Positions 3,772 to 29,775 of a stretch of 64,000 nucleotides of DNA are shown in pieces (positions within the stretch are counted from its first letter, which is position 1; the number at the start of each line of letters is the position of its first letter). The translations under genes were made by a program, and so were the position numbers. The notes beneath the pieces were generated by a model. It did not search any database. It was not told the origin of the DNA and saw nothing but the letters and a program-made list of their open reading frames with translations. Where the stretch lies: contig JAFGJK010000030.1 in assembly GCA_016929135.1 (NCBI GenBank), forward strand, positions 5,531-69,530. The letters run 5' to 3'. Origin of the DNA: Spirochaetota bacterium. Its GTDB lineage: Bacteria > Spirochaetota > UBA4802 > UBA5550.

Positions 3772-5331
3772 ATGACAGACACCGCCACAGTTACGATCGG
3801 GAGCCGCTCCCTGACCCTGGAAGACCTGCTCAAAATCGCCGAAGGATCCGCCACCGTTTCCATAAGCGGGGAAGGGACGTTCCGGGAACGGATCGAGCGT
3901 TCCAGAAGGCTGCTGGACCGGGCTCTGAAAGAGGGGGTGCCGGTATACGGCGTCACCACCGGTTACGGCAAATCCTGCAGCAAGAGGATGGCCCACGAAG
4001 TGGCGCTGAAAAACGGCGAGAACCTGCTCCGCTTCCACGGGTGCGGAACCGGCGACCCCCTGGGCGTCCCCGAGGTGCGAGCCTCCATGGCCATGAGGCT
4101 CGCCTGCTTCTCCAGGGGATACTCCGGGGTATCGATGGAGCTGCTCTCACAGCTTGCCGCGTTCCTGAACAGCGGGATCACGCCGGTGGTCCCCTCCGAG
4201 GGCTCCGTGGGCGCATCGGGCGACCTCACCCCCATGTCCTATGTCGCCGCAGCCCTGACGGGGGAGCGGGAGGTCTACTACCGCGGATCCAGGATGCCGG
4301 CACGGGAAGCGATGGCACAGGCCGGCATCGAGCCCTATGCGTTCAAGCCCAAGGAACCCATCGCCATGATCAACGGCACCGCCACCATGACCGGAATCGC
4401 GCTTATGGTTATGGAGAGGTCCCGGCGCGTACTGGAGGCGGCGGTGGCGGCGACGGCCCTGAGCATACACGCCATGAGCGGCAACGCGCACCACTATCAC
4501 CAGGCCATATCCGACGCAAAGCCCCACCCGGGCCAGGACCATGTGGCGAAGATGCTGCGAGCATACCTTCATTCGTCGACAAACCAGTGGGAATTCGCGC
4601 AGGGGACCCTTGAGACGCTCCAGGACCCCTACTCGCTGCGCTGCTCGCCCCAGATCCTAGGGGTGCTCCACGACGCCCTGGAATGGATCGGCCGGTGGAT
4701 AGAGATAGAATCAAACAGCGCCAACGACAATCCCCTGATCGATCCTGAAAGCGGCGAGGTGCTCATGGGGGGCAATTTCTACGGCGGGCACATCTCCTTC
4801 GCCATGGACGCACTCAAGTCAGCCCTGGCGTCGGTGGCCGACATGAGCGACCGGCAGGTGGCGCTCATGGTGGACCCCCATACCAACCGAGGCCTCCCGG
4901 CCGACCTGGTGAACACCGGCGAGAAGGAGCGCCCCTACAACCACGGCTTCAAGGCCATGTCAATCGCCTCGTCGGCGCTGGCTGCGGAGGCCCTGAAGCT
5001 CACAATGCCGGCCGCATCCTTTTCCCGGTCCACGGAGTCGCACAACCAGGACAAGGTGAGCATGGGGACCATTGCCGCCCGGGATGCGGACCGGGTCTGC
5101 ACGCTCACCATGAGGGTGCTGGCGATCCACCTGCTCGCGGCGGCACAGGCCTGCGAGATCCGCGGCAGGGCCGATCAGCGCCCCCGCATCAACGACATCT
5201 TACGGCTGATCCGGACTCACGCAGAGCCGCTCGCGACGGACAGGCCCATGGACGCCGACATCGAGCGAATTCTCGGACTTATCGCCGGGGGGATGATGGG
5301 GGAGCACGGGGCGGATGGAAGCGTACGGTAG
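3772..5331 (+). CDS. MIO-dependent aromatic amino-acid ammonia-lyase (HAL/PAL family, FH-type)
   Basis: VYGVTTGYG, MIO-forming GSVGASGDL, QDPYSLRC, NDNP, GGNFYG and HNQDKVSMG. Specificity segment reads NLLRFHG. Confidence 0.93.
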   Translation: MTDTATVTIGSRSLTLEDLLKIAEGSATVSISGEGTFRERIERSRRLLDRALKEGVPVYGVTTGYGKSCSKRMAHEVALKNGENLLRFHGCGTGDPLGVPEVRASMAMRLACFSRGYSGVSMELLSQLAAFLNSGITPVVPSEGSVGASGDLTPMSYVAAALTGEREVYYRGSRMPAREAMAQAGIEPYAFKPKEPIAMINGTATMTGIALMVMERSRRVLEAAVAATALSIHAMSGNAHHYHQAISDAKPHPGQDHVAKMLRAYLHSSTNQWEFAQGTLETLQDPYSLRCSPQILGVLHDALEWIGRWIEIESNSANDNPLIDPESGEVLMGGNFYGGHISFAMDALKSALASVADMSDRQVALMVDPHTNRGLPADLVNTGEKERPYNHGFKAMSIASSALAAEALKLTMPAASFSRSTESHNQDKVSMGTIAARDADRVCTLTMRVLAIHLLAAAQACEIRGRADQRPRINDILRLIRTHAEPLATDRPMDADIERILGLIAGGMMGEHGADGSVR

Positions 5332-5734
5332 ACCCTCGTACGAGGTGACCCTGCAGGTCCAGTTCCACGATCTCGACCCGCTGCAGGTGGTCTGGCACGG
5401 CAACTATTTCAAGTACTTCGAGACCGCCCGGTTCGGGCTCTTCGAGCAGTGCGGCGTGGACCTTCACTCGTATCACCGTGACACGAATTACATATTCCCC
5501 ATCGTGAGGACCTCCACCAAACACCTCTTCCCGCTCAGGCACAGGGACCTGTTCGTCTGCAGGGCCTCTCTCCGCGAGGCGAGATTCAAAATAGTAATGG
5601 ACTTCGAGATACGCCTGGCCGACACTCACCGTGTCTGCACCACCGGCCGGAGCGAGCAGGTGGCGGTGAAGGTGCCCGAGATGGAGATGCAATTTATGAT
5701 ACCCGCGGACATAAGGGAAAAGCTGGAAGCGTGA
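5315..5734 (+). CDS. hotdog-fold acyl-CoA/acyl-ACP thioesterase (4HBT/YbgC-like)
   Basis: Motif FHDLDPLQVVWHGNYFKYFETAR. Overlaps the lyase stop, implying translational coupling. Confidence 0.9.
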   Translation: MEAYGRPSYEVTLQVQFHDLDPLQVVWHGNYFKYFETARFGLFEQCGVDLHSYHRDTNYIFPIVRTSTKHLFPLRHRDLFVCRASLREARFKIVMDFEIRLADTHRVCTTGRSEQVAVKVPEMEMQFMIPADIREKLEA

Positions 5735-5735
5735 C

Positions 5736-7457
5736 ATGCACGAAATGCTGATAAGGGGAATCACCACGGGGCTGGAGCGGATATCCGCCTGGTCCGAGCT
5801 ACTGGACAGGATAAACGTATTCCCGGTAGCTGACGGGGACACCGGGCGCAACCTGAAGATGAGCCTCACGCCGCTTATGATGGCCGGCGGCGTGACGGGG
5901 AGCGTCTCGTACAATCTCCTCCTCTCCGCAAGGGGAAACTCCGGCAACATCGCCACGCAATTCTTTTCCGGGTTCATCACCGCGGAGACAGAGCGTGACA
6001 TCGCCGGCGCCGTGGCGCTGGGGAGGGAACGTGCCTGGAAGGCGGTGAACGCCCCGCGGCAGGGTACGATGCTCACCGTGTTCGACTCCCTCAACGAATT
6101 TTACCGTGGGGAAAAGAACATCTTCCATACCGAGGCCACCGTGAAGCGGATCATCGAAAGGCTCGACGAGGCGGTGAAGTCGACGCCGGACCTCCTGGAG
6201 AAACTGAGGATTGCCGGCGTTGTCGATTCCGGCGCCCTGGGGATGTTCATATTCTTCGAGGGATTCTACTACGGACTCATCGGCCTCGACGAGGATTTCG
6301 TGCCGGTGACCGAACGCTTCGGCGATATGCTCAGCGTAAGGAACGGCTTTTCCGAAAACGGCGAAGAGGGGTACTGCATCGATACGGTGCTGCGCATCGA
6401 CGACAGGAGCGAGGCCGCCCTGAGGGAGATATCGGCATCGGGGGAGAGCGTCATTATCATTCCGGAGGAGCAGTACGTGAAGGTCCACCTGCACGCCAGG
6501 GACAGCGGAGAGGCTCGCCGCCGCCTTGAGGCGCTGGGGAGCGTGGTGAACTGGGCCTCCGATGACCTGGACAGGCAGATACGGGAGTTTGCACACCCCC
6601 TCAGGCGCGGTCCGCTGCACATAATGACCGATGCAGCCGGCTCCATCACCCGAGACGATGCGACCTCCCTGGGGTTCACCCTTCTGGAGAGCTACATCAC
6701 CGTGGACAACCGCGCCCTCCCAGAGACCCAGTTCTCCCCCGAGGAGCTCTACCGGCTCATGCGGTCCGGATCCCGGGCCTCCACCTCGCAGGCGTCGATC
6801 TTCGAGCGCCACCAGTGCTATGCCAGTGTCATGAGCCAGTACGAGCGGGTTCTCTACCTCTGCGTCGGTTCGATCTTCACCGGAAACTGGCAGGTGGCCA
6901 CCCGGTGGAAGGAGGAGCACGACCGCGACGGCCGCCTCACCGTGATCGACACCGGCACGGCCTCCGGCAGGTTGGGGGTACTGGCCATCGCCGCAGCGCG
7001 CCACGCGGCGGATGCCCCGTCGGCCGAAGAGGCGATCGATTACGCCCTCCGGGCAAACCGCCTCTGCGACGAGTACATCTTCATCGACAAGCTCCAGTAT
7101 CTCGCTACCGGCGGCAGGCTCTCCAAGACCAGCGCCTTTTTCGGTGACATGCTCCACATGAAACCGGTCATCACGCCGCTCCCGGACGGGGCGAAGAAGG
7201 TTGCCGTGGTCAGGAAGGGACCAGACCAGATCCGCTACGCCATGGACAGGATGACGGAGATCCTCAAGGGGGACCCCTCCCCCTTCATCATGCTGCAATA
7301 CAGCGACAACAGGGACTGGGTGCGCGAGACCGTGCAGGGGGAGGTGCGCTCCCTCTTCCCGGGGGCGGAGATTCTGCTCCAGCCGCTCTCGCTCACCACC
7401 GGGGTTCACACGGGGCCCGGTACCTGGGCCGTGGCGTTTTTGCCCGGACACATCTAA
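5736..7457 (+). CDS. DAK2 (FakA-like) plus DegV (FakB-like) fusion protein
   Basis: N-terminal INVFPVADGDTGRN, ARGNSG, GTMLTV and VVDSGA; middle GYCID...VKVHLH; C-terminal DegV motifs IMTDAAG, VIDTGTAS, GGRLSK and HTGPG. Confidence 0.88.
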   Translation: MHEMLIRGITTGLERISAWSELLDRINVFPVADGDTGRNLKMSLTPLMMAGGVTGSVSYNLLLSARGNSGNIATQFFSGFITAETERDIAGAVALGRERAWKAVNAPRQGTMLTVFDSLNEFYRGEKNIFHTEATVKRIIERLDEAVKSTPDLLEKLRIAGVVDSGALGMFIFFEGFYYGLIGLDEDFVPVTERFGDMLSVRNGFSENGEEGYCIDTVLRIDDRSEAALREISASGESVIIIPEEQYVKVHLHARDSGEARRRLEALGSVVNWASDDLDRQIREFAHPLRRGPLHIMTDAAGSITRDDATSLGFTLLESYITVDNRALPETQFSPEELYRLMRSGSRASTSQASIFERHQCYASVMSQYERVLYLCVGSIFTGNWQVATRWKEEHDRDGRLTVIDTGTASGRLGVLAIAAARHAADAPSAEEAIDYALRANRLCDEYIFIDKLQYLATGGRLSKTSAFFGDMLHMKPVITPLPDGAKKVAVVRKGPDQIRYAMDRMTEILKGDPSPFIMLQYSDNRDWVRETVQGEVRSLFPGAEILLQPLSLTTGVHTGPGTWAVAFLPGHI

Positions 7458-7475: not shown

Positions 7476-8708
7476 ATGAGCGACGGGAGAAGGGTTGTGG
7501 TTACCGGCATCGGTCTGAGATCGCCGATCGGGCATACCATGGGGGAGCTCAAATCCTCCCTGAAGGCCGGGGTCACCGGCATCAGGAGCGTCGACGAGTG
7601 GAAGAGCATCGAGAACATGCGCACCCTGGTGGCCGGCCTCTGCAGGGACATCGACGAATCGGCGATCCCCCGCCAGTACCGGCGCACCATGGGGCGGGTG
7701 GGAATCCTCTCGGCCCTCTCGGCGATCGACGCGGTGAGGGACTCTGGCCTCTCGGAAGAGACGACATCATCGGACCGCTGCGGCGTCTCCTACGGCTCCA
7801 CCCAGGGGAGTTCCACATCCCTGGAGGAGTTCGTGAAAAAGGTCTTCAGCACCAGAAGCCTCAAGGGGATGCAGTCCTCGTCCTACCTCCAGTTCATGAG
7901 CCATACCTGCGCCGCCAACCTGGCGATGATGTTCCAGTCGAAGGGTCCCGTGGTGGCCTCCTGCACCGCCTGCGTCTCTGGGTCCCAGGGGATCGGTTTC
8001 GGATACGACGCCATACGGAGCGGCCGCGCCGAGGTGATGATCACCGGCGGCGCCGAGGAGATGCACTTCATGCACTCCGGGGTCTTCGACATCATGCGGG
8101 CCACCTCGACGAGGTTCAACGACAGGCCTGAGGCCACGCCGCGCCCCTTCGACGCGGAGCGCGACGGCCTCGTGGTGGGCGAGGGGGGCGGCTGTCTGGT
8201 CCTTGAGGATTATGACCATGCCAGGAAGCGGGGCGCCCGTCTCTACGCCGAAATACTGGGCTTCGGCACCAACTGCGACGGCTCGCACCTCACCAACCCC
8301 AGCGCCGCGGGGATGGCCGGCGCGATGAGGATCGCCCTGGCAGACGCCGGTATCCCGGCCGACGCCATCGGGCATGTGAACGCCCACGCCACCGCCACCG
8401 AGGCCGGCGACATCGCCGAGTCCTCGGCGACGTACGATATATTCCGAGACGCCGCTCCGGTGAGCGCCTTCAAGGGGTACATGGGCCACACCCTTGGGGC
8501 ATGCGGCGCCATCGAATCGATCATCACCATTCTCATGATGCGGGATGGATTCATCGCGCCCACTAGGAATCTGGAGACGCCGGACCCGCGGTGCGCGCCG
8601 GTGCGGCACGTCCTCAAGGACACGATCGAGAGCTCCTTCACCAAGGGGATGAACAACAACTTCGCCTTCGGCGGCATCAACACCTCTCTCATCTTCGGGC
8701 TGGTCTAA
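7476..8708 (+). CDS. beta-ketoacyl-ACP synthase (FabF/ApeR-like)
   Basis: Cys-His-His triad in TACVSGSQ, NAHATAT and KGYMGHTLGA; C-terminal NNFAFGGINTSLIF. Confidence 0.93.
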   Translation: MSDGRRVVVTGIGLRSPIGHTMGELKSSLKAGVTGIRSVDEWKSIENMRTLVAGLCRDIDESAIPRQYRRTMGRVGILSALSAIDAVRDSGLSEETTSSDRCGVSYGSTQGSSTSLEEFVKKVFSTRSLKGMQSSSYLQFMSHTCAANLAMMFQSKGPVVASCTACVSGSQGIGFGYDAIRSGRAEVMITGGAEEMHFMHSGVFDIMRATSTRFNDRPEATPRPFDAERDGLVVGEGGGCLVLEDYDHARKRGARLYAEILGFGTNCDGSHLTNPSAAGMAGAMRIALADAGIPADAIGHVNAHATATEAGDIAESSATYDIFRDAAPVSAFKGYMGHTLGACGAIESIITILMMRDGFIAPTRNLETPDPRCAPVRHVLKDTIESSFTKGMNNNFAFGGINTSLIFGLV

Positions 8709-8710: not shown

Positions 8711-9463
8711 GTGGCGGCGCGGGACGAGTCAACCGGCCGCTTTGCCGTGGTGATCCCCCTCTACAATCACGAGGCGAGGATCGCCGACGTGGTGGCATCC
8801 GCCAAGTCGCTGGGGTACCCGGTGATCGTGGTTGACGACGGCTCCACCGACGCCTCCCCCTCGCGGATCGCCGATATCGAAGGGATCACGCTGCTGCGCC
8901 ACGAGGCGAACATGGGGAAGGGGGCGGCGCTGAAGACAGGGTTCCGCGAGGCGGCAACAATCGCGGACTGGGCCATCACCATCGACGCGGACGGCCAGCA
9001 CGACCCGGAGGACGCGAAATCGCTCATCGCCGCGATCCCCCCGGGCACGCGCCCCATCGTGCTGGGAGTGCGCCAGCAGATGGCGGGGAAGGACGTCCCC
9101 TGGACAAGCCGCTTCGGCAGGGGGTTTTCCAATTTCTGGGTGCGGATGTCGGGAGGCGGGAAGGTCAGCGATTCCCAAAGCGGGTTCAGGATCTACCCGC
9201 TCCCGGAGGCGCTGTGTCTGGGCGCCGTTGCCGACCGCTTCCAGTTCGAGGTGGAGGTGCTGGCCAGGGCGGGATGGAACCGGCTCCCGGTGGTGGAGGC
9301 GCCGGTGAGCGTGAGCTACCGGCCCGGGACCGTGAGGATCTCCCACTTCCGCCCCTTCGTGGATTTCCTGAGGAACTCCTCCGTATTCGCCAGACTCATT
9401 ACCGCCAGGATATTCATCCCGCGGATGTTCCGCCGGAGATTGCTGAACCCTCGGATCCAGTAG
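8711..9463 (+). CDS. glycosyltransferase family 2
   Basis: Motifs VVIPLYNH, VVDDGSTD, NMGKGAAL, TIDADGQH, DSQSGFRIYP and RISHFRPFVDF. GTG start 2 nt after the ketosynthase stop. Confidence 0.92.
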   Translation: MAARDESTGRFAVVIPLYNHEARIADVVASAKSLGYPVIVVDDGSTDASPSRIADIEGITLLRHEANMGKGAALKTGFREAATIADWAITIDADGQHDPEDAKSLIAAIPPGTRPIVLGVRQQMAGKDVPWTSRFGRGFSNFWVRMSGGGKVSDSQSGFRIYPLPEALCLGAVADRFQFEVEVLARAGWNRLPVVEAPVSVSYRPGTVRISHFRPFVDFLRNSSVFARLITARIFIPRMFRRRLLNPRIQ

Positions 9464-9484
9464 ATTCAGGATCGAGCGGCTGCC

Positions 9485-10861
9485 TCAGCGGTCCATTCCC
9501 AGGAGCATCGCCAGGAGCTTGTTGGCCCTGCCGGCGAGGTCGTCGCTGATCGCCGAGGTCTTCTCCACCATCCCGGTGTTCTCCTGGGTCGCGGAATCGA
9601 TCTGTACCAGGGTCGAGTTGATCTGTTCGATGCCGATCCGCTGCTCGTTGCTCTTCTCCGCGATTCCCGCCACGAGGTCGCTCACCGAGCTGACCGATTT
9701 CCGTATGTTTTGAATGACATCACCGCTCCCGGCCACCAGGGCTGTCCCCCGCTCGATCTTCTCGCTGCTCTGCTTTATGAGCTCGCCGATCTCACGCGCC
9801 GATTCGGCCGAGCGTCTCGCCAGGTTTCTCACCTCGCTGGCAACCACCGCGAAGCCCCTGCCCCGGTCCCCCGCGTGGGCCGCCTCCACCGCCGCATTCA
9901 GGGCCAGGAGGTTGGTCTGGAAGGATATCTCGTTGATAAGCGAGATGATGCCGGCTATCCTGTCCCCCGACTCCCGTATCTCATCTATGGCCTCCACCGC
10001 ACTCTGCACCAGCCGCACTCCTTCCTCGGCGATCCCGACGGCCTGGACCGCCAGGTCCCTGGCCCGGTGCGTGTTGTCGGAATTCTTACGTATCGCCTCG
10101 GCCGACTCCTCGATGGTGGCGGTGATCTCCTCGAGGGCGCTGGCCTGTTCGGTGGTCCGCTGCGCCAGGGACTGGGTCTCCCCCTTGAGTCGCCCCGACA
10201 GGTCGGCCAGGTCCCGCGACAGGTCCCGCCCCGCGTCGAGGAGCTGCTTCGTCATATCGTGCTCCTTCTCCTTCTCCAGGCTCTCCTCGATCCTGCGGAT
10301 CGAGGCCCTTACGATGGTGAGCAGGAGAAATGCCAGCAGGGTGATGAAGACGCTGGTGATGGAGAAGTAGATCAGCAGCAGCGCCTTGTCGTCTGCCGGA
10401 ACCGCGGCGCGAAGGGTGGTCACCAGCGCCACAAGGAAGTTCAGCAGCGAACTGGCGATGACCGTCCACCGCTCCGTGAATACCGCGGCGATGTTAATGA
10501 ATATGAAAAGGATGATGAGGCGCGATGCCAGGTCGGCAACACCCCTGAAATCCGAGAAGACCAGCTGGACGCCCATGACGGCGATGCATCCGAACACCGC
10601 CAGCTTCGCCCCCAGATGATAGCGCCCCGTGCGGATCAGGAACAGGGCGACGGCGCACAGAATGATAAGGCACACCCGCATGAGATTGCGCCCCGACAGA
10701 GGCGATTCCGGGGAATAGATGTTCATGAGAACGACCACCGCGGAAACGAGGACCAGCGCCGCCATGACGAAATACAGGAATATGCGGGACTGCTGCTGGA
10801 GCATGAAGGATTCGTTTTCGTAGCGAACGAGAAAATACTGCAGTAATCGTTTCATCGGCAT
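9485..10861 (-). CDS. methyl-accepting chemotaxis protein with multi-TM N-terminal sensor
   Basis: Signalling hairpin [37 protein letters not shown]; about 6 hydrophobic helices at the N-terminus. Confidence 0.93.
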
Positions 10862-11346
10862 CACCCTTTCCTCATCAGGATGACTCCCAGTATGCACAGA
10901 TCCGCCACTGTGTCAACACCGATAAAGTGCTAATAGCATAACAATTGTATGATCCTTCACGGTGCCGCTTCGGGATGATAACACCGCATGCGGTACGGGC
11001 ATGAGCCACCAGCCCCCGGGCATTCCGCCGCCATGCTGTGCAGCGAGCAGGCAATGCTGAGGAACGGCCAATTTACAGCAATACCGTGTGAGCCTTCTCC
11101 ATGCCGCAGGTTCTGATATACAGGAAATCCTGCGGCAGAGCGGGTGTGCCGGTCACGTCGCCATGACGCCGCCGATCAATTCCAGCAGGAATATTATACT
11201 CATTAATTGTGTTGGCGAATAGTGAAATACACGGCACAGTCTCTCGATAAATGTTCACACAATATTTTTCGCGGAACGCAGCAGCCCCGGAACCTGTCCA
11301 AGAGAGGATGACGAAAAGAGCGAATACCATGCACACGGAGCTGTAT

Positions 11347-11793: not shown

Positions 11794-11855
11794 AAAGCAG
11801 CATGTAGACTGATGGAATCGCCGGTCGCGTCGAGACGAACGGCGCCCCCTCTGTT

Positions 11856-13138: not shown

Positions 13139-13188
13139 GGGGAAAGCACCGACAACATCCCCTCATATTTCAGCAATATTGATGAATA

Positions 13189-24500: not shown

Positions 24501-27423
24501 GATAGTCGGTCCGCTGAAGAGCGGCGCGACGAAGCTGACGGCCCCGGGGGAGCGCCTGCTGGATTACCGAAGGGAGAACAAGGCATCACTGCAGAGACTG
24601 GCGCTGAAGGCCCCCCCGGGCATGGCCCCGGAACCCCTCCCCCCCTTCTTTACCCGGATGATCCAGGAGCGACTGTCGGTGCTGGAGCAGAGAAACACGG
24701 TGGAGCCCCTCTTCTCACCCGTCATGACCGCCGCGGCATACCGGATCACCCCCAGGGGGGACGGCGGCGGGTCCTTTTTGATCGCCTACTGCCACGCCTG
24801 TTACGAGGAGGGGGGGGGGCGCTACGACGACCTGCGCTGGGCCCTCGGCGACGGCACGTGGCCGCTGGCGCTGCACCGGAGGGCGGACGAGCGCTGCTGG
24901 CTGGAGCTCGTGACCAGCGGCATCACCCTCACCTGCGACGACTGCGCGGAGCAGGCCGGGGGGTACGTCACCCTGCGGCAGATGCGGGGCGCCTTTGCCA
25001 GTGCCTTCGACGGTATGGGTTCCGGCCGCAACATCAGGGGGATCGTATCGATCACGATGCAGAACCCCGCCGGCAGGGACATGCGGCACCGTCCGCTGCT
25101 GGTCTACCCTGCAGGCGAATCGGTCTCGGTGGAATTCATGCAGGACAGCGACAGGGAGAATCCCTACTGCATCGACGGCAAACCGAACATCGTCAACCAG
25201 CGCCTCTTCAGGATGCGGAAGTGGCCCATCGAGATATGGGCCTCCCAGTGCTTCGACGACGGGAGCATGCAGGAGCTGCAGGTCCGCATGATAGACTCGG
25301 AGCGGGAGCAGCTGGGACTGGACGCCAGGCCGGCGGTCCGCCCCGTCGGCGCCAGAATCTTCCGCGGCACCATCGGCGGTAGCGACGCCCTCTTTTACAT
25401 GAAGGATTCCCGCATCAGCGGCGGCTCCACCGGCAATTGGGAAGGCCTGAAATACGCCGCCGCCTGCTACCTGGCGTACCTGAGGGACTGGCCGCTCTAC
25501 GTGTGGAACGACAGCGCCGGCGCCAACATAATGGAGGGGGTCGTCTCCCTGAACCGGGGCGCCCAGGGATTCATGATGAACTCGCTGCTCACCTCCCGGC
25601 CGGACGCGGGGTCCTTCCGCCGCTTCCTCGAGCAGAACGGGGACCCCTTCCTGATGAAGGTCTTCCGCGCCCTGGACCTGGACTTCCGGCTGGAGGTCCC
25701 GGCGGCAGCCCGCCGTCGTTTCCAGCTTATCGCGGTGGGGATCGGACCGTCCGCGGGCCTCGACGTGTACGGGTCGAGCCAGGCCTCGATACAGGTCATG
25801 CTCGACTCGGAACAGACCTACCGGGTGCTCACCGGCTCCAGCGTCATACGGACGGTGATCGGCGAGGACATCTCGAACTACGACATCGGCGGCGCCAAAA
25901 TCCTGGGGAAGTGGACCGGCATCGTCGACATTGTCGCCAGGGACAAGCTCCAGCTCATCAGCGTGATACAGCGCCTGCACGACCTCTTCACCATGGAATC
26001 CCCGCTGGCAGCCATACGCAGGAGGCAAACGGTCCGGCGGGGAGGACAGACCGGGACCGCCGGAGTAATACAGTTCAGCGAGTCCCTGATACGGGAACAC
26101 ACCGACGACGGCGTCTTTCTCCCCTTCAAGGAGGACTATTACGCATCCAGCGCCTGCATCGGCGGCTTCGCGAAGATGGGCGGGCGGCGGGTCCTCATCC
26201 TGGGGGCCAGGACGGACCGCGGCCTGAAGTCCCCGGCATCCATCATCAAGGCCAGGGAGCTCCTGCGGACCGCCCACAGGACCGCGTGCCACCAGATCCT
26301 CATATTCGGAAAGCGATGGATCCAGCGGCCAGACTACCACGAGAGCGCCAGCGTGCGGCCCCACATTGATCTCATGGACACCATGCGGAAAAAAGCCGGC
26401 ATCCGCCTGCATGTGGTCACCGACCCGGAGGGGCTCGAATCCGTCGAAATCAACAGCACCGCCGACGCCGTCATCTACGTGAGGACCGAGGGGGAGACAC
26501 ACGGGAGAATCGCCTTTACCGAGAAAAACGCGGTCTTCCACGTCGCCACGAGAAGTGAGGCATTCAACCTCTCACTCGCCCTGCTGCGGCTCATGGACCC
26601 CATGGGACCCGCGCCGGGCGACGAGATCCGCCCCGGCGGGACGCCCCGCATCCCCGGCGACCACGGGACCCCCTACGACATCCTGGAATCGGTAATCCTC
26701 CCCGTCTTTGACGCAGAGAGCTTCCTTGAATTCTACCGCGACATGAACAATCCCCTTTCGGGTCCGCACCTCATCACCGGCCTTGCCCGCCTCGACGGCG
26801 CCACTGTTGGCGTCATCGCCGACCAGCCCCTGCTCAAGGGGGGCGGGGCGGACGCCATGGGAACGGAGAAATTCAGGATCTTCACTGATTTCTGCAACAG
26901 CAACGGGATACCGCTGGTGATCCTCTCCAATTCCTCCGGCTTCGTCCCCGGCTCGTCGCAGGAGCGCCAGAGGATACAGGCCATCGGGGCGGAATCGCTG
27001 GACGTCAACATAGCGGGGCGTATACCGGTGGTGAGCGTGGTGCTGAACCAGAACTACGGCGGCCGCCTCATTCACGCCTTCAACAGGTTCCTGCGGCCCG
27101 GAATCGTCTACCTTGCGCTGGAGCAGGCGGTGCTGGCGGTGATCGGGGTCGAGGCCGCCTTCGACCTTCTCTACGGGACGAAGTACGAGCGGCTGATCAA
27201 CGAAGGGAGACAGGACGAGGCGGCGGCGCTGAAATCGGAGTTTTCCAGCGGGTATCTCGACAAGGCGCGCTCCACGAACGACGCGCTGCGCACCGGCCTC
27301 ATCGACTGGACGATCCCTGACATCCGCGACCTCAGGGAAAACCTCATACGCGGACTCAGCCTTGCGATCCAGCGCTGCCAAGAGGCCTTTGGCAAGATCC
27401 GCGGCGGTACCGGCCGGGAGTGA
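21568..27423 (+). CDS. single-chain biotin-dependent acyl-CoA carboxylase (BC-BCCP-central region-CT), 1951 aa
   Basis: BC motifs KVLVANRGEIA, GYGFLSEN, GGGGKGM and EMNTRLQVE; BCCP LSSMKMES; CT motifs WNDSAGANIMEG, ITGLARLDGATVGVIADQP, GIPLVIL..SSGFVPG and NYGG. Confidence 0.92.
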   Translation: MDTATLEKLIAASLERLRRINPSVAGRPAEGLSPPRRTRGHRLRKVLVANRGEIAKRFFLALHEEGIPSVAVVTDPDRGQSWYEFADEVVFIGEHHRYSSIETVIAAARLIGANAIYSGYGFLSENPEFVEAINASSKAGAPLVFIGPNHRTMRTLGNKVRARELARQHDIPLFDSSGILTPAEMDRAEEEARRIGYPVMVKPVSGGGGKGMYPVSGEEGLTWAVQSCARIGRDLYGSDLFYIEKFIEQPVHIEVQVFNGHAIGIRKCAVQRRNQKIIEESGHSFLQEAESLPLMAAAETMARISGYCRGGGAGTVEFLFDATTGRFGFLEMNTRLQVEYAVTDQSLGIDLAKWQILYFDGREREIIGLEALKRGEVDRDHSIECRIYAEEPENDYLPSPGTIVEMDLPTFNGIRCDFGFGEGDTILPMYDPLVGKIIAQGATRSEAIIRLERALQELYIKGIKTNISQLLRIVRHRAFLGGDYTNNILLEHADLSFREREAGSCAGGARRIKHIIFGAFAEHVRLIQKSVRDFMIVANIEGYIEAPVLPSVPTGFFTEHRGARCRLDFLQVSMDRFYAYVDSVFSGTILIVSINDRSDDLLLQYGNSSYRIRINRHGPLVDLRMKDEKNKIDYFRLRVEPEGSAGGGDIATVLSPFQGTFVSFCSDRLKPGALVRRGEPLVVLSSMKMESVISAPEDGEIISLIEEGDASRLILTTTRDGRVIGRSVQEGELLVTIRTRGAGKARASAIPRKKHATDRRGGRTLPEQLMREDCEAWASKNPGAHLEDLMMLLASASQGFIRDQRIIDMLKRILKRIPAEGMRRRVPERTQDALDRLILQFTCVKRVFSPVLSESGLTYQEELNLHVERRRDLKLSPSFEEVMDILRNAYGLSHWSGRPEVKKMFSQFHLFLLRLSHQFCMEHTDLIQKSVQMLSLVPRPLEGTRRTLAMLLEQEQAERDDTLLKFIKRTFAEKLQGMIVGPLKSGATKLTAPGERLLDYRRENKASLQRLALKAPPGMAPEPLPPFFTRMIQERLSVLEQRNTVEPLFSPVMTAAAYRITPRGDGGGSFLIAYCHACYEEGGGRYDDLRWALGDGTWPLALHRRADERCWLELVTSGITLTCDDCAEQAGGYVTLRQMRGAFASAFDGMGSGRNIRGIVSITMQNPAGRDMRHRPLLVYPAGESVSVEFMQDSDRENPYCIDGKPNIVNQRLFRMRKWPIEIWASQCFDDGSMQELQVRMIDSEREQLGLDARPAVRPVGARIFRGTIGGSDALFYMKDSRISGGSTGNWEGLKYAAACYLAYLRDWPLYVWNDSAGANIMEGVVSLNRGAQGFMMNSLLTSRPDAGSFRRFLEQNGDPFLMKVFRALDLDFRLEVPAAARRRFQLIAVGIGPSAGLDVYGSSQASIQVMLDSEQTYRVLTGSSVIRTVIGEDISNYDIGGAKILGKWTGIVDIVARDKLQLISVIQRLHDLFTMESPLAAIRRRQTVRRGGQTGTAGVIQFSESLIREHTDDGVFLPFKEDYYASSACIGGFAKMGGRRVLILGARTDRGLKSPASIIKARELLRTAHRTACHQILIFGKRWIQRPDYHESASVRPHIDLMDTMRKKAGIRLHVVTDPEGLESVEINSTADAVIYVRTEGETHGRIAFTEKNAVFHVATRSEAFNLSLALLRLMDPMGPAPGDEIRPGGTPRIPGDHGTPYDILESVILPVFDAESFLEFYRDMNNPLSGPHLITGLARLDGATVGVIADQPLLKGGGADAMGTEKFRIFTDFCNSNGIPLVILSNSSGFVPGSSQERQRIQAIGAESLDVNIAGRIPVVSVVLNQNYGGRLIHAFNRFLRPGIVYLALEQAVLAVIGVEAAFDLLYGTKYERLINEGRQDEAAALKSEFSSGYLDKARSTNDALRTGLIDWTIPDIRDLRENLIRGLSLAIQRCQEAFGKIRGGTGRE

Positions 27424-27440: not shown

Positions 27441-28115
27441 TCACAGCTCCTCGACAAAGCGGTAGGAGTCGTTGAACCTGAACATGATGCCGGCGCCCAC
27501 CGCCCAGCCGTACCCCTGCCCCCACATGCCGTCGATGTAGTTCATGTCGCCGGCGAAGAGCCCGTAGCGGAATCCCCCCTCCAGAAGAAACGAGATCAGG
27601 GGGCCGGCATGAATATTGATCCCGGCGGTGACCCCGATAGTTCCGAAGGCCTCCATGTGCCTCCTGTTGCTCATCCCGATCCCAAAGCCGTAGCCGAATT
27701 CAGGGCCGAGCCAGAGACGAACCAGCTCGTTCCGCCAGGGTGAAAAACCGAATGCATGATACATGGAATACGATGTCATCACGAGTCGCTGCCAGGGAAA
27801 CCTGCGCTCGGCACCACCGGCGCCCACGTGGAGGCGATAGTTCACCAGGACATCCCTGGCCACGTCGGAATCGAAGACGATCCCCGAAGCCCAGGACATG
27901 CCCCGATGGTCCCGTGTCACCCGGCGCTCGGTTATCGGCTCGCTGTAGGTATACCGGATCAAGCTCTCACCGTAGGTCCCGAATGCCCCGAGGCCGAAGG
28001 CCAGCAGGGGCGCCGGAAACAGTGATACTGCCAGGACCATCGGCAGGAGCGCCCGTCCCAGGACCCGCCGCGCCGCGTGAAGAGAGGGAGGTGTCCTGCC
28101 CCACCCTCTAGTCAT
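27441..28115 (-). CDS. putative outer-membrane beta-barrel protein
   Basis: Signal-like LLPMVLAVSLFPAPLLA and alternating aromatic/Gly strands ending WAVGAGIMFRF. ATG overlaps the end of the upstream gene. Confidence 0.65.
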   Translation of the reverse strand: MTRGWGRTPPSLHAARRVLGRALLPMVLAVSLFPAPLLAFGLGAFGTYGESLIRYTYSEPITERRVTRDHRGMSWASGIVFDSDVARDVLVNYRLHVGAGGAERRFPWQRLVMTSYSMYHAFGFSPWRNELVRLWLGPEFGYGFGIGMSNRRHMEAFGTIGVTAGINIHAGPLISFLLEGGFRYGLFAGDMNYIDGMWGQGYGWAVGAGIMFRFNDSYRFVEEL

Positions 28116-28494
28116 CCCCGTCCTCCCCGACAAGAGCCGCAGCCTCCTCCCGGGTGATCTCGCTCCAATCCGGATCCGCGAAATCACCGCCGTCGATGGT
28201 GAAGCTCACGCGGTCGAAGCGCTCCCGGTAATTCTCGAGCTTCGAGCCCCTGTCGGGGCACCGTACGATGAACACGAGTCGCTTAGTGTCGAGGGAATAA
28301 TCTCGACAGATCATCGCAGCCAGCTGCTCCACAAAGGCAGTGATCGAAGTGCCCGGATTCTTATCGTACAGCTCCGTGGCGATCACCGTATGGTGTTTCT
28401 CCCCCTTCACCACCCTGAGACCGCAGAGTGACGGCACATCCCACTCTCCCCTGAATTCGTATATATCGTCGATGAACCGGTCCTGCATATGCAT
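28108..28494 (-). CDS. hypothetical protein co-transcribed with the B12 radical SAM gene
   Basis: 128-aa globular ORF (SLCGLRV, TELYDKNPGTSIT, DPDW), 18 nt after the radical SAM stop. Confidence 0.75.
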   Translation of the reverse strand: MHMQDRFIDDIYEFRGEWDVPSLCGLRVVKGEKHHTVIATELYDKNPGTSITAFVEQLAAMICRDYSLDTKRLVFIVRCPDRGSKLENYRERFDRVSFTIDGGDFADPDWSEITREEAAALVGEDGDD

Positions 28495-28512
28495 CCACCA
28501 TCCCCGGCGATC

Positions 28513-29775
28513 TCACCGCGCCGTCCGCCCGAAGGTTTTGGCCGCCAGGTCGCGGCGCCGGGGGACGTAGGTGTTATCCGCCTTCTCCCTCTCCACCACG
28601 CGCCGTATCAGCTTGTACATCTTGTACTGCTGCGGCTCATCCCGGTAGAACTCCTCCCAGGCGAAGCTGAAGAGTTCCTGAAGCCGCTCTGGCGCCATGT
28701 GCCTCGGCTGAAAGACCACCTCGCCCGCGTTGTACCTGTCCCAGTCGTAGCTGAGTATCCGCTTCTGCTTCCTCAGGTCATCGAAGGCCTTGGTGTGCGG
28801 GAACGGAGTGAGGACGGTGAACTCCGCCAGGTCAAGCTCTATCTCCAGCAGGAAATCGATGAGACGCCTGATGGAGTCCTCGGTGTGGTCGTCGAGCCCC
28901 AGAAGGATGGTCCCCTCAACCGCTATCCCGTGATCGTGGTACCGCTTAATCCTCTGGCGTATGTAATCGGAGGTGTCGAAGACCGCCTGGTAGACGTACC
29001 AGGCGCCGGCCTGGGCCGCCAGGTCCAGCACCTCCGGCTTGTCCTCGATGGTGTGGCTGCACCATTTCTTCTTGAAGGGTATCATCTCCCGGAAGAGCTC
29101 CATCTCCCAGGCCGTGTCCTGGGCCAGTGAGTTGTCGACGATGAAGAGCCTGTTGTTGTCGATGGTCGCCAGCTCCTCAGCCACGCGATCCATGGGCCTG
29201 GGCCTGAACTCCCTTCCGCCCAGGTATGCCACGGCGCAGGGATAGCAGTTGAAGCGACATCCGCGCGATGCGTGAAAGAGGTCCACCATGCGGATCCCCT
29301 TGTGATAGTAGAGATCCCGCTCGAGGATGCTTCTCCTGGCCGGGCCCACCAGATCCACCGGGGGCCGTGCGGACAGGTAGTTGTACACCTGCTTCAGCGC
29401 CCCGTCCCTGAAATCGGCAAAGACCTCCTCCATCCGCCCCTCGGACTCGCCGAGGAACACCGAGTCGGCGTGCGTCAGGGTCTCCTCTGCGTGGAGCATC
29501 GTGGCGATGCCGCCGAAGATAACCTTCACCCCCCGGCGGCGGTACTCGTCGGCGATCTCCCATCCCCGTCTCACCTGTACGGTGAGCATCATAGATATAC
29601 CCACGAAATCCGCACCGTCGTCGAAATCCAGGGTCTGCAGGTTCTCGTCGACGAAGACCACGTCGACGTAGTCCGGAAGCGATGCAGCCATCACCACCGG
29701 CCCGTGGGGGGGCAGGTTGAACTCTGTCTGCCCCTCCAGCTTTTTCCATTTCGGATATATCAGCTTGAATTTCAT
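28513..29775 (-). CDS. B12-binding-domain radical SAM protein
   Basis: N-terminal cobalamin-binding-like domain (DFVGIS, VIFGGI, VFLGESEG), SRGCRFNCYPC and LTPFPHT; GGAGG RBS. Confidence 0.92.
   Translation of the reverse strand: MKFKLIYPKWKKLEGQTEFNLPPHGPVVMAASLPDYVDVVFVDENLQTLDFDDGADFVGISMMLTVQVRRGWEIADEYRRRGVKVIFGGIATMLHAEETLTHADSVFLGESEGRMEEVFADFRDGALKQVYNYLSARPPVDLVGPARRSILERDLYYHKGIRMVDLFHASRGCRFNCYPCAVAYLGGREFRPRPMDRVAEELATIDNNRLFIVDNSLAQDTAWEMELFREMIPFKKKWCSHTIEDKPEVLDLAAQAGAWYVYQAVFDTSDYIRQRIKRYHDHGIAVEGTILLGLDDHTEDSIRRLIDFLLEIELDLAEFTVLTPFPHTKAFDDLRKQKRILSYDWDRYNAGEVVFQPRHMAPERLQELFSFAWEEFYRDEPQQYKMYKLIRRVVEREKADNTYVPRRRDLAAKTFGRTAR

Follow-up and report, generated by a model that had tools for sequence, protein, structure and literature searches.

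A dispersed gene set resembling aryl-polyene-lipid clusters, in which a fused fatty-acid kinase appears to stand in for the usual acyltransferase

In a 64,000-nucleotide stretch of spirochaete DNA, here called the window, genes for an ammonia-lyase, a thioesterase, a fatty-acid-kinase-like fusion, a ketosynthase and a glycosyltransferase follow one another on the plus strand, and the locus raises the question of what such a set would make and what a fatty-acid kinase would do within it. A first-pass annotation saw the inventory of an aryl polyene cluster, with missing partners encoded elsewhere or replaced, possibly an extender supply of its own, and the kinase as a possible activator of the starter acid. 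Each gene in its list was recovered, with coordinates that agree exactly or to within a few bases (open reading frames, Pfam, NCBIfam); the underlying observation is confirmed, and the interpretation as a whole is partly supported. On balance we favour a reading in which one half of an aryl-polyene-lipid (APEL)-type pathway, covering starter supply, initiation, anchoring and export, lies in the window, with anchoring running from the fusion to PlsY.

The first operon (3772-9463) opens with a MIO-dependent aromatic amino-acid ammonia-lyase (3772..5331, plus strand; PF00221, 542.7 bits), followed on the same strand by an ApeK-like thioesterase of the 4HBT fold (5315..5734; 4HBT_2 36.5 bits, 4HBT 32 bits), the single-chain kinase-like fusion with Dak2, FakA-like_M and DegV domains (5736..7457), an ApeR-type (initiation) beta-ketoacyl-ACP synthase, or KS (7476..8708; PF00109 114.8 bits, PF02801 101 bits), and a GT2 glycosyltransferase (8711..9463; PF00535 80.2 bits). 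The longest frame of the last starts at GTG 8591, the codon-usage caller favouring ATG 8711, and its top NCBIfam match is PpgS-like at 80.6 bits, under the cut-off. The junctions measure -17, +1, +18 and +2 nt, and the operon is as tightly coupled as first described. Transcribed divergently from the lyase is a small predicted membrane protein (3267..3728, minus strand; 153 aa as the longest frame, 107 aa from the codon-usage start) with hydrophobic stretches visible in its sequence. It drew no match in Pfam and NCBIfam searches, and a homologue holds the equivalent divergent position in 8 of 9 relatives' loci and in 8 of the best 80 loci of 591 relatives found among species-representative genomes (the best 80 below; 79 of them hold the fusion). 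Its Atlas look-alikes are unnamed Thermodesulfobacteriota proteins.

The second block, also on the plus strand, consists of an ApeM-like exporter (17458..20508), that is, an MMPL/RND-type transporter (Pfam MMPL) whose C-terminal part is a class-I SAM methyltransferase (Methyltransf_23, residues 859-1009), and, 4 nt further on, an LpxL/HtrB-family acyltransferase (20513..21397; Lip_A_acyltrans PF03279, 54.2 bits); they are present in 28 and 46 of the best 80 loci, respectively. Between the blocks lie about 8 kb outside the pathway (9464..17457), with MCP, DUF975, an ECF sigma factor and anti-sigma-like gene, small ORFs and ORFs without function, at a GC content of 0.45-0.58 against 0.63-0.66 in the flanks; flanking repeats and mobility genes were looked for in this segment and none were seen. 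GT2 is followed directly by the MMPL-methyltransferase and acyltransferase in four of the nine relatives' loci (L013, L014, L017, L018), and the blocks are also contiguous in many of the best 80. The low-GC segment is therefore an insertion that splits the source-genome cluster, and the two blocks are linked, as had been proposed. Because identical gene order recurs in the nine relatives' loci and in the best 80, the arrangement is not due to chance. The closest named loci sharing flanking synteny are titled Spirochaetota/Leptospirales. The source organism is a sediment spirochaete.

A B12/radical-SAM operon on the minus strand converges on the block that ends with the carboxylase (17458-27423). 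Its B12-binding radical-SAM enzyme (28513..29775), a conserved cluster member present in 42 of the best 80 loci, is assigned from weak Pfam/NCBIfam matches (B12 domain 33.5 bits, cut-off 32.1; Radical_SAM only 25.3, cut-off 29.5) together with 72-74% identity to genes that lie 3' of the acyltransferase in L013 and L017. Adjoining it is a conserved 128-aa protein (28108..28494, minus strand), without a match in Pfam and Atlas searches and sharing 56.9% identity with its positional counterpart in L017, from a genome of the same order. Membership is uncertain for the last gene of the operon (27441..28040, minus strand; 199 aa, or 248 aa from the longest start), which has no family match and a homologue in one of the best 80 loci. 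It is likewise uncertain for two minus-strand frames upstream in that operon, of 106 aa (30007-30327) and 226 aa (30395-31075), which the codon-usage caller picked over overlapping plus-strand frames and which show no Pfam match and no similarity to LolA, h217 or the Ape proteins.

The partners predicted to lie elsewhere were found on contigs C103 and C13 of the source genome, which carry ACPs, a KS-CLF, dehydratases, a KR, an acyl-AMP ligase, MCAT, PPTase, LolA and PlsY. Spread over three contigs in four or more loci (C103:20.5-30 kb, C13:7-14.4 kb, C13:40.6-43 kb and the window), the genes are best read as one dispersed pathway, and they are contiguous in relatives and in wider loci, e.g. 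L069, L096 and L052. The C103 module also contains a TIGR04072 B12 radical-SAM gene (388.6 against a cut-off of 360) and two further radical-SAM genes; judged by its sequences, the whole is a predicted dispersed aryl-polyene-lipid pathway with ladderane-type radical-SAM extras. The window KS, whose placement relative to FabF the first-pass annotation had singled out, is of the ApeR type: it is 41.7% identical to E. coli ApeR (E 6e-115), its top NCBIfam family is NF006587 (455.5 bits, cut-off 470) against 346 for fabF, with E. coli ApeR itself scoring 778.8 bits, and in a tree from a quick search its clade joins ApeR with SH-aLRT 100, apart from FabF, while KS-CLF joins ApeO with 96. NCBIfam families are held in common by ApeO and KS-CLF (NF006618), ApeE and ACPa (NF006617), and ApeF and ACPb (NF003757).

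The lyase is the likely source of an aryl starter acid, from Tyr or Phe. It reaches 439.8 bits with the HutH equivalog, under the 539 cut-off; its scores with TAM, PAL, TAL and HAL structures span 239-272 bits, and of the solved structures SgTAM, a tyrosine aminomutase, comes closest (272 bits). It is the sole MIO lyase of the source genome, in which urocanase was searched for and not found. Of 40 cluster lyases, 39 retain GASGDL and 37 the [FY]HGCG motif. Within 10 kb of the fusion the lyase occurs in 32 of 79 loci among the best 80, against 54 for the thioesterase, 50 for GT2 and 46 for the acyltransferase; the fusion therefore does not depend on the lyase, and since 47 of the 79 have none nearby, some family members may lack an aryl cap. 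A non-aryl product (a conjugated or polyunsaturated chain, a hydrocarbon, or a radical-SAM 'ladderane-like' chain), with the lyase an optional accessory, is the least improbable of the alternatives, though still unlikely. Besides the lyase-less loci it can claim the three radical-SAM genes of C103, the syntenic Desulfotalea clusters, for which the portion of Rattray et al. 2009 (PMC2649909) drawn on here gives polyunsaturated hydrocarbons and not ladderanes, and the precedent of X. doucetiae, whose own cluster yields, in addition, a conjugated C26:5 acyl chain of non-aryl type (10.1101/2020.12.19.423268, in part). Against it, the source genome unites the lyase with an ApeH-like ligase and an ApeR-type initiation KS, and a phenol-type O-methyltransferase (PF00891) adjoins the lyase in two relatives (G018/L014 and G026/L119). 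The aryl and non-aryl readings are compatible, since an APEL bears chains of both kinds.

The fusion belongs to a large family that carries only the name 'DegV family protein'. Its Dak2 domain (66.9 bits, residues 30-178) and FakA-like_M domain (38.1 bits, 212-284) are followed by a C-terminal domain matching the whole DegV profile (144.7 bits, 294-570; profile 2-279 of 280), not FakA-like_C; NCBIfam likewise gives YloV (9-286) and DegV (295-568). Aligned with S. suis FakA (7W7H), the fusion retains NVFPVaDGDTG, ARGNSG, GVVDSG, GYC and KVHlH, the middle domain being of the Cys-His-His type, and the motif positions are invariant in eight fusion orthologues. The catalytic residues named in the consulted part of PMC9136124 (N32, D38, D40, T41, N82, D185, C240, H282, H284) fall within these motifs, and the fusion looks like a competent kinase. 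It is the sole DegV protein of the source genome. The thioesterase lies directly 5' of it in 54 of the best 80 loci; its absence beside the fusion in 25 of 79 counts against our model.

Among 41 genomes of the same order, the 11 in which PlsY was found and the 11 with the fusion are the same genomes, neither gene occurs in the other 30, and PlsX was found in none. The source genome has one PlsY (in the cluster module) and no PlsX; it is 81.5% complete, so absences from it are weak evidence; the failure to find PlsX in any of the 41 weighs more. PlsY sits within a KS-KS-TE-DH/PPTase-PlsY module in every locus looked at. It scores 94.3 bits against an NCBIfam equivalog cut-off of 137.2, which leaves room for a different donor or acceptor. 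Two points weigh against coupling: fusion and PlsY lie on different contigs in the source genome, and their co-occurrence, counted over kin that are not independent, may reflect only gain and loss of one island. Only 5 of the best 80 loci have PlsY within 10 kb, and the hosts of the others may use a housekeeping PlsY. Variants of the slot are informative. In one relative, G007, FakB and FakA are separate proteins: the slot holds a stand-alone DegV, with a canonical three-domain FakA on the contig that carries the PlsY/KS module; another relative, G026, which has neither fusion nor PlsY, has an operon of lyase, thioesterase, a 258-aa PF01553 acyltransferase of the ApeD/PlsC type in the fusion's slot, KS (63% identity), GT2 and MMPL-methyltransferase.

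That fusion and PlsY form a general, Firmicutes-like route from scavenged fatty acids to bulk phospholipid, merely near the cluster, is improbable. Scavenging is plausible in an order where PlsX was found in none of 41 genomes and 20 of the 41 lack a FabF/B-type KS (no match better than E 1e-6), but the 30 relatives with neither gene must make bulk lipid independently of them, cluster genes enclose the fusion in the 80 best loci examined, and G026 replaces it in situ with a cluster acyltransferase. The proposal that the fusion activates cinnamate or coumarate as an acyl-phosphate starter, in place of an acyl-AMP ligase, is probably wrong and retains only a slight chance. The genes for lyase, thioesterase and fusion sit side by side with translational coupling, and Pfam finds no ligase within the window; yet an ApeH-like AMP-ligase is present on C13 and in 20 of the best 80 loci, a PlsX-type enzyme to pass acyl-phosphate to ACP was found in none of the 41 genomes, the fusion is kept without the lyase, it co-occurs with PlsY, and the G026 acyltransferase would be incapable of starter activation. 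Weakest of all is an ordinary fatty-acid synthase made up of the four KS genes and their partners, for although all four full KS genes of the source genome sit in cluster loci, nothing in the assembly, these included, reaches the fabF cut-off, and the KS_C13 and KS_C103 clades are sister to canonical FabF in the quick tree, the window KS and KS-CLF group there with ApeR and ApeO, the module holds CLF, an ApeI-like dehydratase, radical-SAM enzymes, LolA and MMPL, and its distribution in the order is patchy.

The extender supply fared in between. The single-chain BC-BCCP-CT carboxylase (21568..27423, plus strand; 1951 aa; Pfam), 170 nt beyond the acyltransferase, has a BC domain like bacterial biotin carboxylases and probably supplies malonyl-CoA. 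It tracks polyketide/fatty-acyl machinery in an order where half of the sampled genomes have no FabF/B-type KS, and strong matches occur in 8 of 11 fusion-positive against 5 of 30 fusion-negative relatives; it adjoins the cluster in only two loci, in the source genome and in G018/L045, and is only loosely linked to it.

Our preferred APEL-type route draws on gene content, homologies, synteny and co-distribution, from which we infer every chemical step and the product. The lyase would yield an aromatic acrylic acid, which the ApeH-like AMP-ligase (C13) would load onto the ApeE-like ACP (C103). After priming by the window KS, the chain would be extended by the fused ApeO-ApeC KS-CLF (C103), the ApeQ-like KR and ApeI/ApeP-like dehydratases (C103, C13), and modified by several radical-SAM enzymes, among them the 'ladderane-type' TIGR04072 enzyme and that of the window. 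The thioesterase would release the acyl acid, the single-chain Fak (FakA_N, FakA_M and FakB-type domain) would bind and phosphorylate it with ATP, and the cluster PlsY paralogue (C13) would move the acyl-phosphate onto glycerol phosphate. GT2 and the LpxL-type acyltransferase, together a split ApeJ, would add a sugar and a second special acyl group, and export would fall to the MMPL-methyltransferase, LolA and a lipoprotein (C13). Carboxylase, MCAT and PPTase could make the island self-sufficient in a lineage mostly without type II FAS.

Direct comparison with the E. coli CFT073 APE cluster bears out the aryl-polyene-like inventory. By blastp of its 18 Ape proteins, ApeR, O, C, M, K, J, I, H, F and E match proteins of the source-genome cluster loci, and with ApeQ (45.6% identity) and weaker matches for ApeP and ApeL, 13 of the 18 have homologues there; ApeD, ApeG, ApeA, ApeB and ApeN have no sequence match in these loci. 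The thioesterase is 33.3% identical to ApeK (E 1e-21), GT2 resembles the N-terminal half of ApeJ (33% over 237 aa) and the LpxL-type acyltransferase its C-terminal half (27.5% over 193 aa, E 7e-19), the MMPL-methyltransferase is 24.4% identical to ApeM over 561 aa, and the C13 AMP-ligase 27% identical to ApeH (E 1e-30). The APEL of X. doucetiae has a glycerol-phosphate-GalNAc backbone, for which it is proposed that ApeD acylates glycerol phosphate and that ApeJ attaches first GalNAc and then the APE (10.1101/2020.12.19.423268, as far as consulted), a chemistry that gives the parts of the cluster a role. In place of FakA_C, the window fusion carries a full DegV/FakB-type acid-binding domain. 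From these sequences the predicted envelope lipid appears to be joined to its glycerol anchor through the fused kinase and not the usual acyltransferase: in enterobacterial clusters a PlsC-type ApeD acylates, whereas in the source cluster we propose fusion and PlsY for the same job.

All genes named by the first-pass annotation were confirmed by an ORF listing, gene calling with a codon-usage model trained on the window, and searches of Pfam and NCBIfam. A five-gene operon on the forward strand (3772-9463) opens with an MIO aromatic amino-acid lyase (PF00221, 542.7 bits), followed by a thioesterase of the 4HBT fold, a protein of 573 aa that combines Dak2, FakA-like middle and DegV domains (5736-7457, forward strand; here called the fusion), a ketosynthase (KS) and a GT2 glycosyltransferase. 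Its junctions of -17, +1, +18 and +2 nt bear out the tight coupling that had been claimed. Further along the same strand, an MMPL transporter with a fused methyltransferase (17458-20508) is followed by an acyltransferase of the LpxL family (20513-21397) and a carboxylase of 1951 aa with BC, BCCP and CT domains (21568-27423); an operon that includes a B12-binding radical-SAM gene (28513-29775, reverse strand) converges on the carboxylase, and this second block is also present as first described. The radical-SAM Pfam score of the B12 enzyme is 25.3 bits, under the curated cut-off of 29.5, and its name is therefore based on weak matches together with strong conservation. Both gene callers were home-made, so gene starts are approximate, and the low-GC loci L015-L019 of relatives were called by length, not codon usage.

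The genes at 35-64 kb of the window are unrelated to the cluster. Just past the cluster, the interval 31236-35523 encodes a SPASM radical-SAM protein that resembles the tungsten-cofactor oxidoreductase maturase family (224 bits; cut-off 380), together with a protein of family DUF1207 and a receptor of the TonB-dependent type; a DUF1207 gene also flanks the corresponding cluster (L118) of G026, another genome of the order. Two ORFs at cluster edges that by eye resemble outer-membrane beta-barrels, with C-terminal strands rich in aromatic residues, lie at 27441-28040 and at 13313-14440 of C13, another contig of the same genome (G000). A 153-aa membrane protein matched only unnamed clusters in the ESM Atlas, and a 128-aa protein had no usable match there. 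Upstream, on the reverse strand at 318-3173, are genes for PRPP synthetase, an NTP-transferase and a kinase of the GHMP family, all three probably with housekeeping roles; the placing of the GHMP kinase next to prs is reminiscent of the ispE-prs arrangement. A role for the kinase and the nucleotidyltransferase in sugar-donor supply was considered and rejected as unsupported; these genes are kept as upstream neighbours only in spirochaete loci (L011, L012, L064, L073).

Among 41 genomes of the order, 11 (G000 included) were found to carry the fusion, and nine relatives' loci were compared by placing the window proteins on them. In four loci (L013, L014, L017 and L018) the GT2 gene is followed directly by the MMPL-methyltransferase and acyltransferase genes, so that the two blocks, assigned to one pathway at first pass, are contiguous there. 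The B12 radical-SAM gene comes next in L013 and L017, in convergent orientation, and the giant carboxylase comes next in L014. Because the blocks adjoin in relatives, positions 9464-17457 of the window are taken as an insertion of about 8 kb. The GC content of this interval is 0.45-0.58, against 0.63-0.66 in its flanks, and several of its ORFs fit the window codon model badly. It contains genes for an MCP, a DUF975 protein, an ECF sigma factor and an anti-sigma/Lsa33-like protein, an STM3941-like ORF and three ORFs without a family; no integrase, transposase or mobility gene was found in it, and a search for border repeats gave no convincing match. In the same-genus genome G001 the roughly 6 kb downstream of the GT2 gene (L011) had no match to the MMPL-methyltransferase, acyltransferase or carboxylase, and the giant carboxylase of that genome sits on a different contig.

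According to the first-pass annotation the remaining biosynthetic partners had to be elsewhere in the genome or replaced, and they are present elsewhere. By Pfam, the flanks of relatives' loci encode ACPs, ApeI-like dehydratases, a fused KS-chain-length-factor (KS-CLF), further KS, a dehydratase-PPTase (DH-PPTase) fusion, MCAT, a short AMP-ligase, PlsY, LolA, a phytoene-desaturase-like flavoprotein and more radical-SAM genes. Partners in G000 were located by tblastn with these flank proteins, followed by Pfam and NCBIfam. A module at 20.5-30 kb of contig C103 contains ACPa (NF006617, 68.3 bits; cut-off 70), ACPb (NF003757, 78.8 bits; cut-off 65), a third ACP, a 718-aa KS-CLF, a B12 radical-SAM enzyme of family TIGR04072 (388.6 bits against 360; the window B12 enzyme scores only 42.4), two further radical-SAM genes, a NodB-type polysaccharide deacetylase, a FabA/ApeI-like dehydratase and a KS. 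At 7-14.4 kb of C13 are a KS, a 4HBT thioesterase, the DH-PPTase and PlsY, with MCAT (fabD, 282.3 against 260.9), the AMP-ligase and a gene of unknown function on the opposite strand, and at 40.6-43 kb of C13 are an ApeP-like hotdog protein, a ketoreductase (KR; 41863-42564), LolA and a lipoprotein. Since the same modules are contiguous with window-type genes in other genomes (e.g. L069, L096, L052), the pathway of G000, which occupies at least four loci on three contigs in addition to carrying the 8-kb insertion, is genuinely dispersed, as it had been described, and does not form one contiguous cluster.

The pathway was compared with the aryl-polyene (APE) cluster of E. coli CFT073, with Ape gene names taken from PMC8253772, and 13 of the 18 Ape proteins have a detectable homologue in G000. 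The window KS shares 41.7% identity with ApeR (blastp, E 6e-115), and its best family, NF006587 (455.5 bits, 15 below the cut-off of 470), is the one that ApeR matches with 778.8 bits. NF006618 is the best NCBIfam family of both ApeO and the N-terminal half of the KS-CLF (316.7 bits; cut-off 407), which are 37.8% identical, and the C-terminal half matches PF13723, the Pfam family of ApeC, a protein without an NCBIfam match. ACPa and ACPb are the counterparts of ApeE and ApeF. The window thioesterase is 33.3% identical to ApeK and the MMPL protein 24.4% to ApeM (blastp). The 558-aa ApeJ matches both the window GT2 (33% identity) and the window acyltransferase (27.5%; blastp), so these two genes appear to be a split ApeJ. 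On C13, the KR is 45.6% identical to ApeQ, the AMP-ligase 27% to ApeH (E 1e-30), LolA is the counterpart of ApeL and the ApeP-like match is weak (E 5e-5); the ApeI-like dehydratase scores 28.2 bits against a Pfam cut-off of 28.5 and also matches FabA. The C13 lipoprotein, which has no DUF3261 match, may be the equivalent of ApeN. No homologue of ApeD, ApeG or ApeA was found in the cluster loci of G000, and ApeD gave only generic matches, on contigs C153 and C154.

Phylogeny agrees with these assignments. In a quick IQ-TREE analysis of 47 KS sequences with SH-aLRT support only (3 of 50 rows were shorter than 320 aa and were excluded), the window KS and its orthologues group with ApeR (support 100) as sister to FabB and are separate from the FabF of E. 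coli and from canonical FabF proteins in two relatives; the N-terminal domains of KS-CLF group with ApeO (support 96), and the two remaining KS types of G000 make up separate clades beside FabF. The window KS also scores 346.4 bits on the FabF model TIGR03150, against a cut-off of 493.75. The KS is thus of the ApeR type rather than a housekeeping FabF, and its partner genes exist on C103 and C13; a KS of the FabF group in a genome lacking such partners would have told against the first-pass proposal that a spirochaete has a dispersed pathway for an envelope lipid of aryl-polyene-like type, and this proposal is supported. By gene content, the pathway is an APE/APEL-type cluster (APEL, aryl-polyene lipid) merged with ladderane-type radical-SAM modules. 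Across the order, 20 of 41 genomes had no FabF/B-type match better than E 1e-6, and only 2 of 41 had a match over the fabF cut-off.

The lyase is the sole MIO enzyme of G000. It scores 439.8 bits on the HutH equivalog model, which has a cut-off of 539.15, its gene belongs to an operon of polyketide type, and a search of the assembly, which is 81.5% complete, found no urocanase. Its closest solved structure is a tyrosine aminomutase, with all classes within about 30 bits. Among 40 cluster lyases the Ala-Ser-Gly MIO triad is present in 39 and a [FY]-H-G-C-G motif in 37, and a phenol-type O-methyltransferase gene lies beside the lyase gene in two relatives, G018 and G026. The starter is likely an aromatic acid derived from Tyr or Phe. 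At the 'selectivity switch' the motif reads [FY]-H, from which no call between Tyr, Phe and His is made.

The fusion is best described, from its sequence, as FakA_N and FakA_M with a built-in, substrate-binding FakB, and kinase activity is predicted. In phmmer searches against solved structures, residues 14-281 align with S. suis FakA (7W7H) and the later part with DegV/FakB structures. The residues of S. aureus FakA listed as nucleotide/Mg ligands or catalytic (N32, D38, D40, T41, N82, D185, C240, H282 and H284; PMC9136124) were matched to the fusion by motif through the 7W7H alignment. The motifs NVFPVaDGDTG, ARGNSG, GVVDSG, GYC and KVHlH are conserved relative to 7W7H and invariant in eight orthologues, so that both the FakA_N nucleotide/Mg site and the Cys-His-His set of the middle domain are present. 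The C-terminal domain matches the DegV profile over its full length (PF02645, 144.7 bits, positions 2-279 of 280; TIGR00762, 157.7 bits against 99.7) and occupies the place of the FakA-like_C docking domain (PF13684), for which Pfam gave no match in the fusion. In S. aureus, FakA_C is described as the FakB docking site and as being without the inserts that form the fatty-acid tunnel (PMC9136124). It is the full DegV domain, the absence of FakA_C and the retained catalytic motifs together that lead to this description. A Dak2-DegV fusion architecture has been mentioned before, citing Erni 2006 (preprint 10.1101/2021.02.16.431466).

Relatives of the fusion are numerous. An alignment of eight fusions, used to scan species-representative genomes, matched at least 596 stretches, of which 591 were confirmed as relatives and the best 80 loci retained. 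Most titles point to Thermodesulfobacteriota (Syntrophales/Smithella, Desulfobacterales, Desulfobulbales) and some to Spirochaetota/Leptospirales and Myxococcales; relatives of Desulfocapsa, Syntrophus and Smithella are among the named loci. In the protein database, 3884 of 7999 scored proteins matched at E 1e-20 or better, and all of the 120 matches listed share the three Pfam domains of the fusion and are named only 'DegV family protein' or 'hypothetical'. Genes accompanying the fusion at a distance of up to 10 kb (coverage above 0.5) were counted in the best 80 of the at least 591 loci. The fusion itself was recovered in 79 of these 80, the thioesterase in 54, GT2 in 50, the acyltransferase in 46, the window-type B12 radical-SAM gene in 42, the ApeR-type KS in 34, the lyase in 32, the MMPL-methyltransferase in 28, the lipoprotein h217 in 25, ACP in 22, the AMP-ligase in 20, KS-CLF in 14, the TIGR04072-type enzyme in 13, PlsY in 5 and the giant carboxylase in 1.

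Four lines of evidence point towards a role of the fusion in anchoring the acyl chain rather than in activating the starter, as predicted from gene content. The first is the distribution of PlsY and PlsX. PlsX was found in none of the 41 genomes of the order, while a control search found it in 9 of 14 reference genomes, and PlsY is present in 11 of the 41, exactly those with the fusion. PlsY is established as a family that accepts acyl-phosphate (PMC5700162). In G000 there is a single PlsY, encoded in the C13 module, and a single DegV domain, that of the fusion, and no PlsX was found in the 81.5% complete assembly, which makes the fusion the only visible source of PlsY substrate in this genome. 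The second is the arrangement in G007, where the operon slot of the fusion is taken by a stand-alone DegV (L019:9627-10484) and a canonical three-domain FakA, which does carry PF13684 (L121:17030-18625), lies on the same contig as the PlsY and KS module. A second, weaker PlsY match also occurs in G007. The third is G026, which has neither the fusion nor PlsY. Its operon, in other respects the same, encodes a lyase, a thioesterase, a 258-aa PF01553 acyltransferase of the ApeD family, an ApeR-type KS (63% identity), GT2 and the MMPL-methyltransferase, and the whole pathway is contiguous on one contig (C16; L118, L119), with the O-methyltransferase beside the lyase. Since an acyltransferase there takes the place of the fusion, the job of the slot would be acyl transfer to a lipid backbone. 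The fourth is the independence from the lyase, in that 47 of 79 loci keep the fusion without a nearby lyase.

The known structure of a related lipid fits an anchoring role, by analogy. The APEL of X. doucetiae has a glycerol-phosphate-GalNAc backbone, to which ApeD has been proposed to add the conjugated acyl chain, at the glycerol phosphate, and ApeJ to add GalNAc and then the aryl polyene (preprint 10.1101/2020.12.19.423268). G000 has the split ApeJ, the NodB-type deacetylase and the thioesterase-Fak-PlsY trio, and no ApeD homologue in its cluster loci; the single-chain fatty-acid kinase and PlsY appear to replace ApeD in this pathway. An ACP-bound chain would be released by the thioesterase as a free acid, which the single-chain Fak would convert to an acyl-phosphate for transfer by PlsY to glycerol phosphate. 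All of the chemistry of the pathway is predicted. The acid handled by the fusion could be the conjugated chain, an aryl polyene or a scavenged fatty acid.

The co-occurrence of fusion and PlsY could also reflect inheritance of one island, as the related genomes are not independent. Two further points weigh against anchoring through PlsY. The C13 protein, at 124.7 bits well over the cut-off of PF02660, scores 94.3 against 137.2 on the equivalog TIGR00023, and in G000 the fusion and PlsY are on different contigs. The first-pass suggestion that Fak serves as a non-standard starter activator is disfavoured by the ApeH-like ligase in G000, the many loci with fusion and no lyase, the link to PlsY and the acyltransferase in the G026 slot.

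Returning to anchoring, a broader form of the proposal has, in our judgement, about an even chance of being correct. The single-chain Fak and PlsY would form a dedicated hand-off route for specialised polyene lipids and a non-orthologous replacement of ApeD, used by a very large unnamed 'DegV family protein' family of anaerobic Thermodesulfobacteriota, Spirochaetota and Myxococcota, and located on a self-sufficient lipid island (with its own ACC, MCAT, PPTase, ACPs and PlsY) that is able to work in hosts without type II FAS, PlsX or PlsY. If so, this would be the first biosynthetic, non-scavenging role for a Fak system, and would give a handle on the products of the long-unexplained 'ladderane-like' clusters of non-anammox bacteria. 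The window itself suggests a specific role for thousands of proteins now labelled only 'DegV family protein', and offers a concrete, testable model of how the product is fixed to a glycerol anchor, with three natural variants of one operon slot to compare (fused Fak, split Fak and PlsC-type acyltransferase). With the island, a lineage otherwise without them would gain functions for malonyl-CoA supply, ACP priming and acylation of glycerol phosphate. In the paper library searched, none of the papers listed combined Fak, DegV or PlsY with aryl polyenes or ladderanes.

The claim that the pathway has its own extender supply holds in part. Of the 11 relatives with the fusion, 8 have a strong match to the giant carboxylase, as do 5 of the 30 without it, but the gene adjoins the cluster only in G000 and G018. 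G026, with the ApeD-type version of the cluster, is one of the five fusion-negative genomes, and giant multi-KS ORFs are found no more than about 10 kb from a copy of the carboxylase gene in three genomes, G011, G012 and G026. Because the carboxylase tracks polyketide or fatty-acyl machinery in an order that often has no FabF/B-type KS, a dedicated supply of malonyl-CoA for such machinery is a reasonable but loose reading, with the substrate predicted. The multi-KS ORFs (G011:C103; G012:C1, about 1.46-1.476 Mb; G026:C57) are 3800-4000 aa long and resemble type I PKS or PUFA synthases. A homologue of the giant carboxylase in G014 (C240) has one in-frame TAA.

Single-chain multi-domain acyl-CoA carboxylases are known, for example the bacterial long-chain acyl-CoA carboxylase (LCC). 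The window enzyme likewise has BC, BCCP and CT on one chain; it differs in its length of 1951 aa, with about 600 residues between BCCP and CT (about 710-1300) that match no Pfam or NCBIfam family. Only its BC domain had a strong match in the PDB, and it is therefore not classed as eukaryote-type or LCC-type.

In flexirubin biosynthesis, FlxA is an MIO tyrosine ammonia-lyase that feeds an aryl polyene. An MIO lyase is common to both pathways, but the window lyase scores 322.6 bits against the FlxA cut-off of 700, DarB only 19.6 bits on the window KS, and no dialkylresorcinol genes (DarA/DarB) were seen here.

With the FakA/FakB systems of Firmicutes (S. aureus, S. suis), whose acyl-phosphate product feeds PlsY (PMC9136124, PMC10848957), the fusion shares the FakA_N ATP/Mg site, the Cys-His-His middle domain and a DegV/FakB-type binding domain. 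It differs in being one polypeptide with a FakB-type domain instead of FakA_C, and in belonging to an operon for biosynthesis, as opposed to scavenging. In Enterococcus faecalis a thioesterase and Fak also lead from acyl-ACP through free acid and acyl-phosphate to PlsY, bypassing PlsX (PMC12288450, PMC10449490); as described there, ordinary fatty acids take this path as a side route or bypass, whereas the route proposed here would be a dedicated one in a lineage without PlsX.

[quoted passage not shown] With those of E. coli CFT073 and Xenorhabdus doucetiae the present pathway shares type II PKS-like chain building, a thioesterase, lipid anchoring and RND/LolA export (PMC8253772; preprint 10.1101/2020.12.19.423268). 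In G000, in contrast, the pathway is dispersed, its host is a spirochaete, ApeJ is split in two genes, ApeO and ApeC are fused, and no ApeD, ApeG or ApeA was found at the cluster loci, while an MIO lyase, the Fak fusion, PlsY, MCAT, DH-PPTase, four radical-SAM enzymes, a polysaccharide deacetylase and the giant carboxylase are added.

The 'ladderane-type' FASII-like clusters are the last comparison. Rattray et al. 2009 described syntenic clusters of this kind in Kuenenia, Desulfotalea, Geobacter and Pelobacter, with radical-SAM and phytoene-desaturase-like genes, a 'phenylacetyl-CoA ligase' and a glycosyltransferase, and reported polyunsaturated hydrocarbons and no ladderanes in Desulfotalea (PMC2649909); antiSMASH 'ladderane' clusters of unknown function occur in many non-anammox phyla (PMC9902471), and according to both sources the non-anammox clusters are not linked to ladderanes. 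Neither source was found to mention Fak, DegV or PlsY (DegV, 0 occurrences in PMC2649909). Multiple FabF paralogues, ACPs, radical-SAM enzymes, a 'phenylacetyl-CoA ligase'-like gene and a glycosyltransferase are common to these clusters and the G000 pathway, which differs in having no phytoene-desaturase-like gene at its loci (weak matches lie elsewhere only), a clear ApeR/ApeO-type KS ancestry, and a lyase. In these accounts no product has been assigned since 2009 to the 'ladderane-like' clusters that sulfate reducers and other anaerobes carry (PMC2649909; PMC9902471), and the window ties them to aryl-polyene clusters in one pathway.
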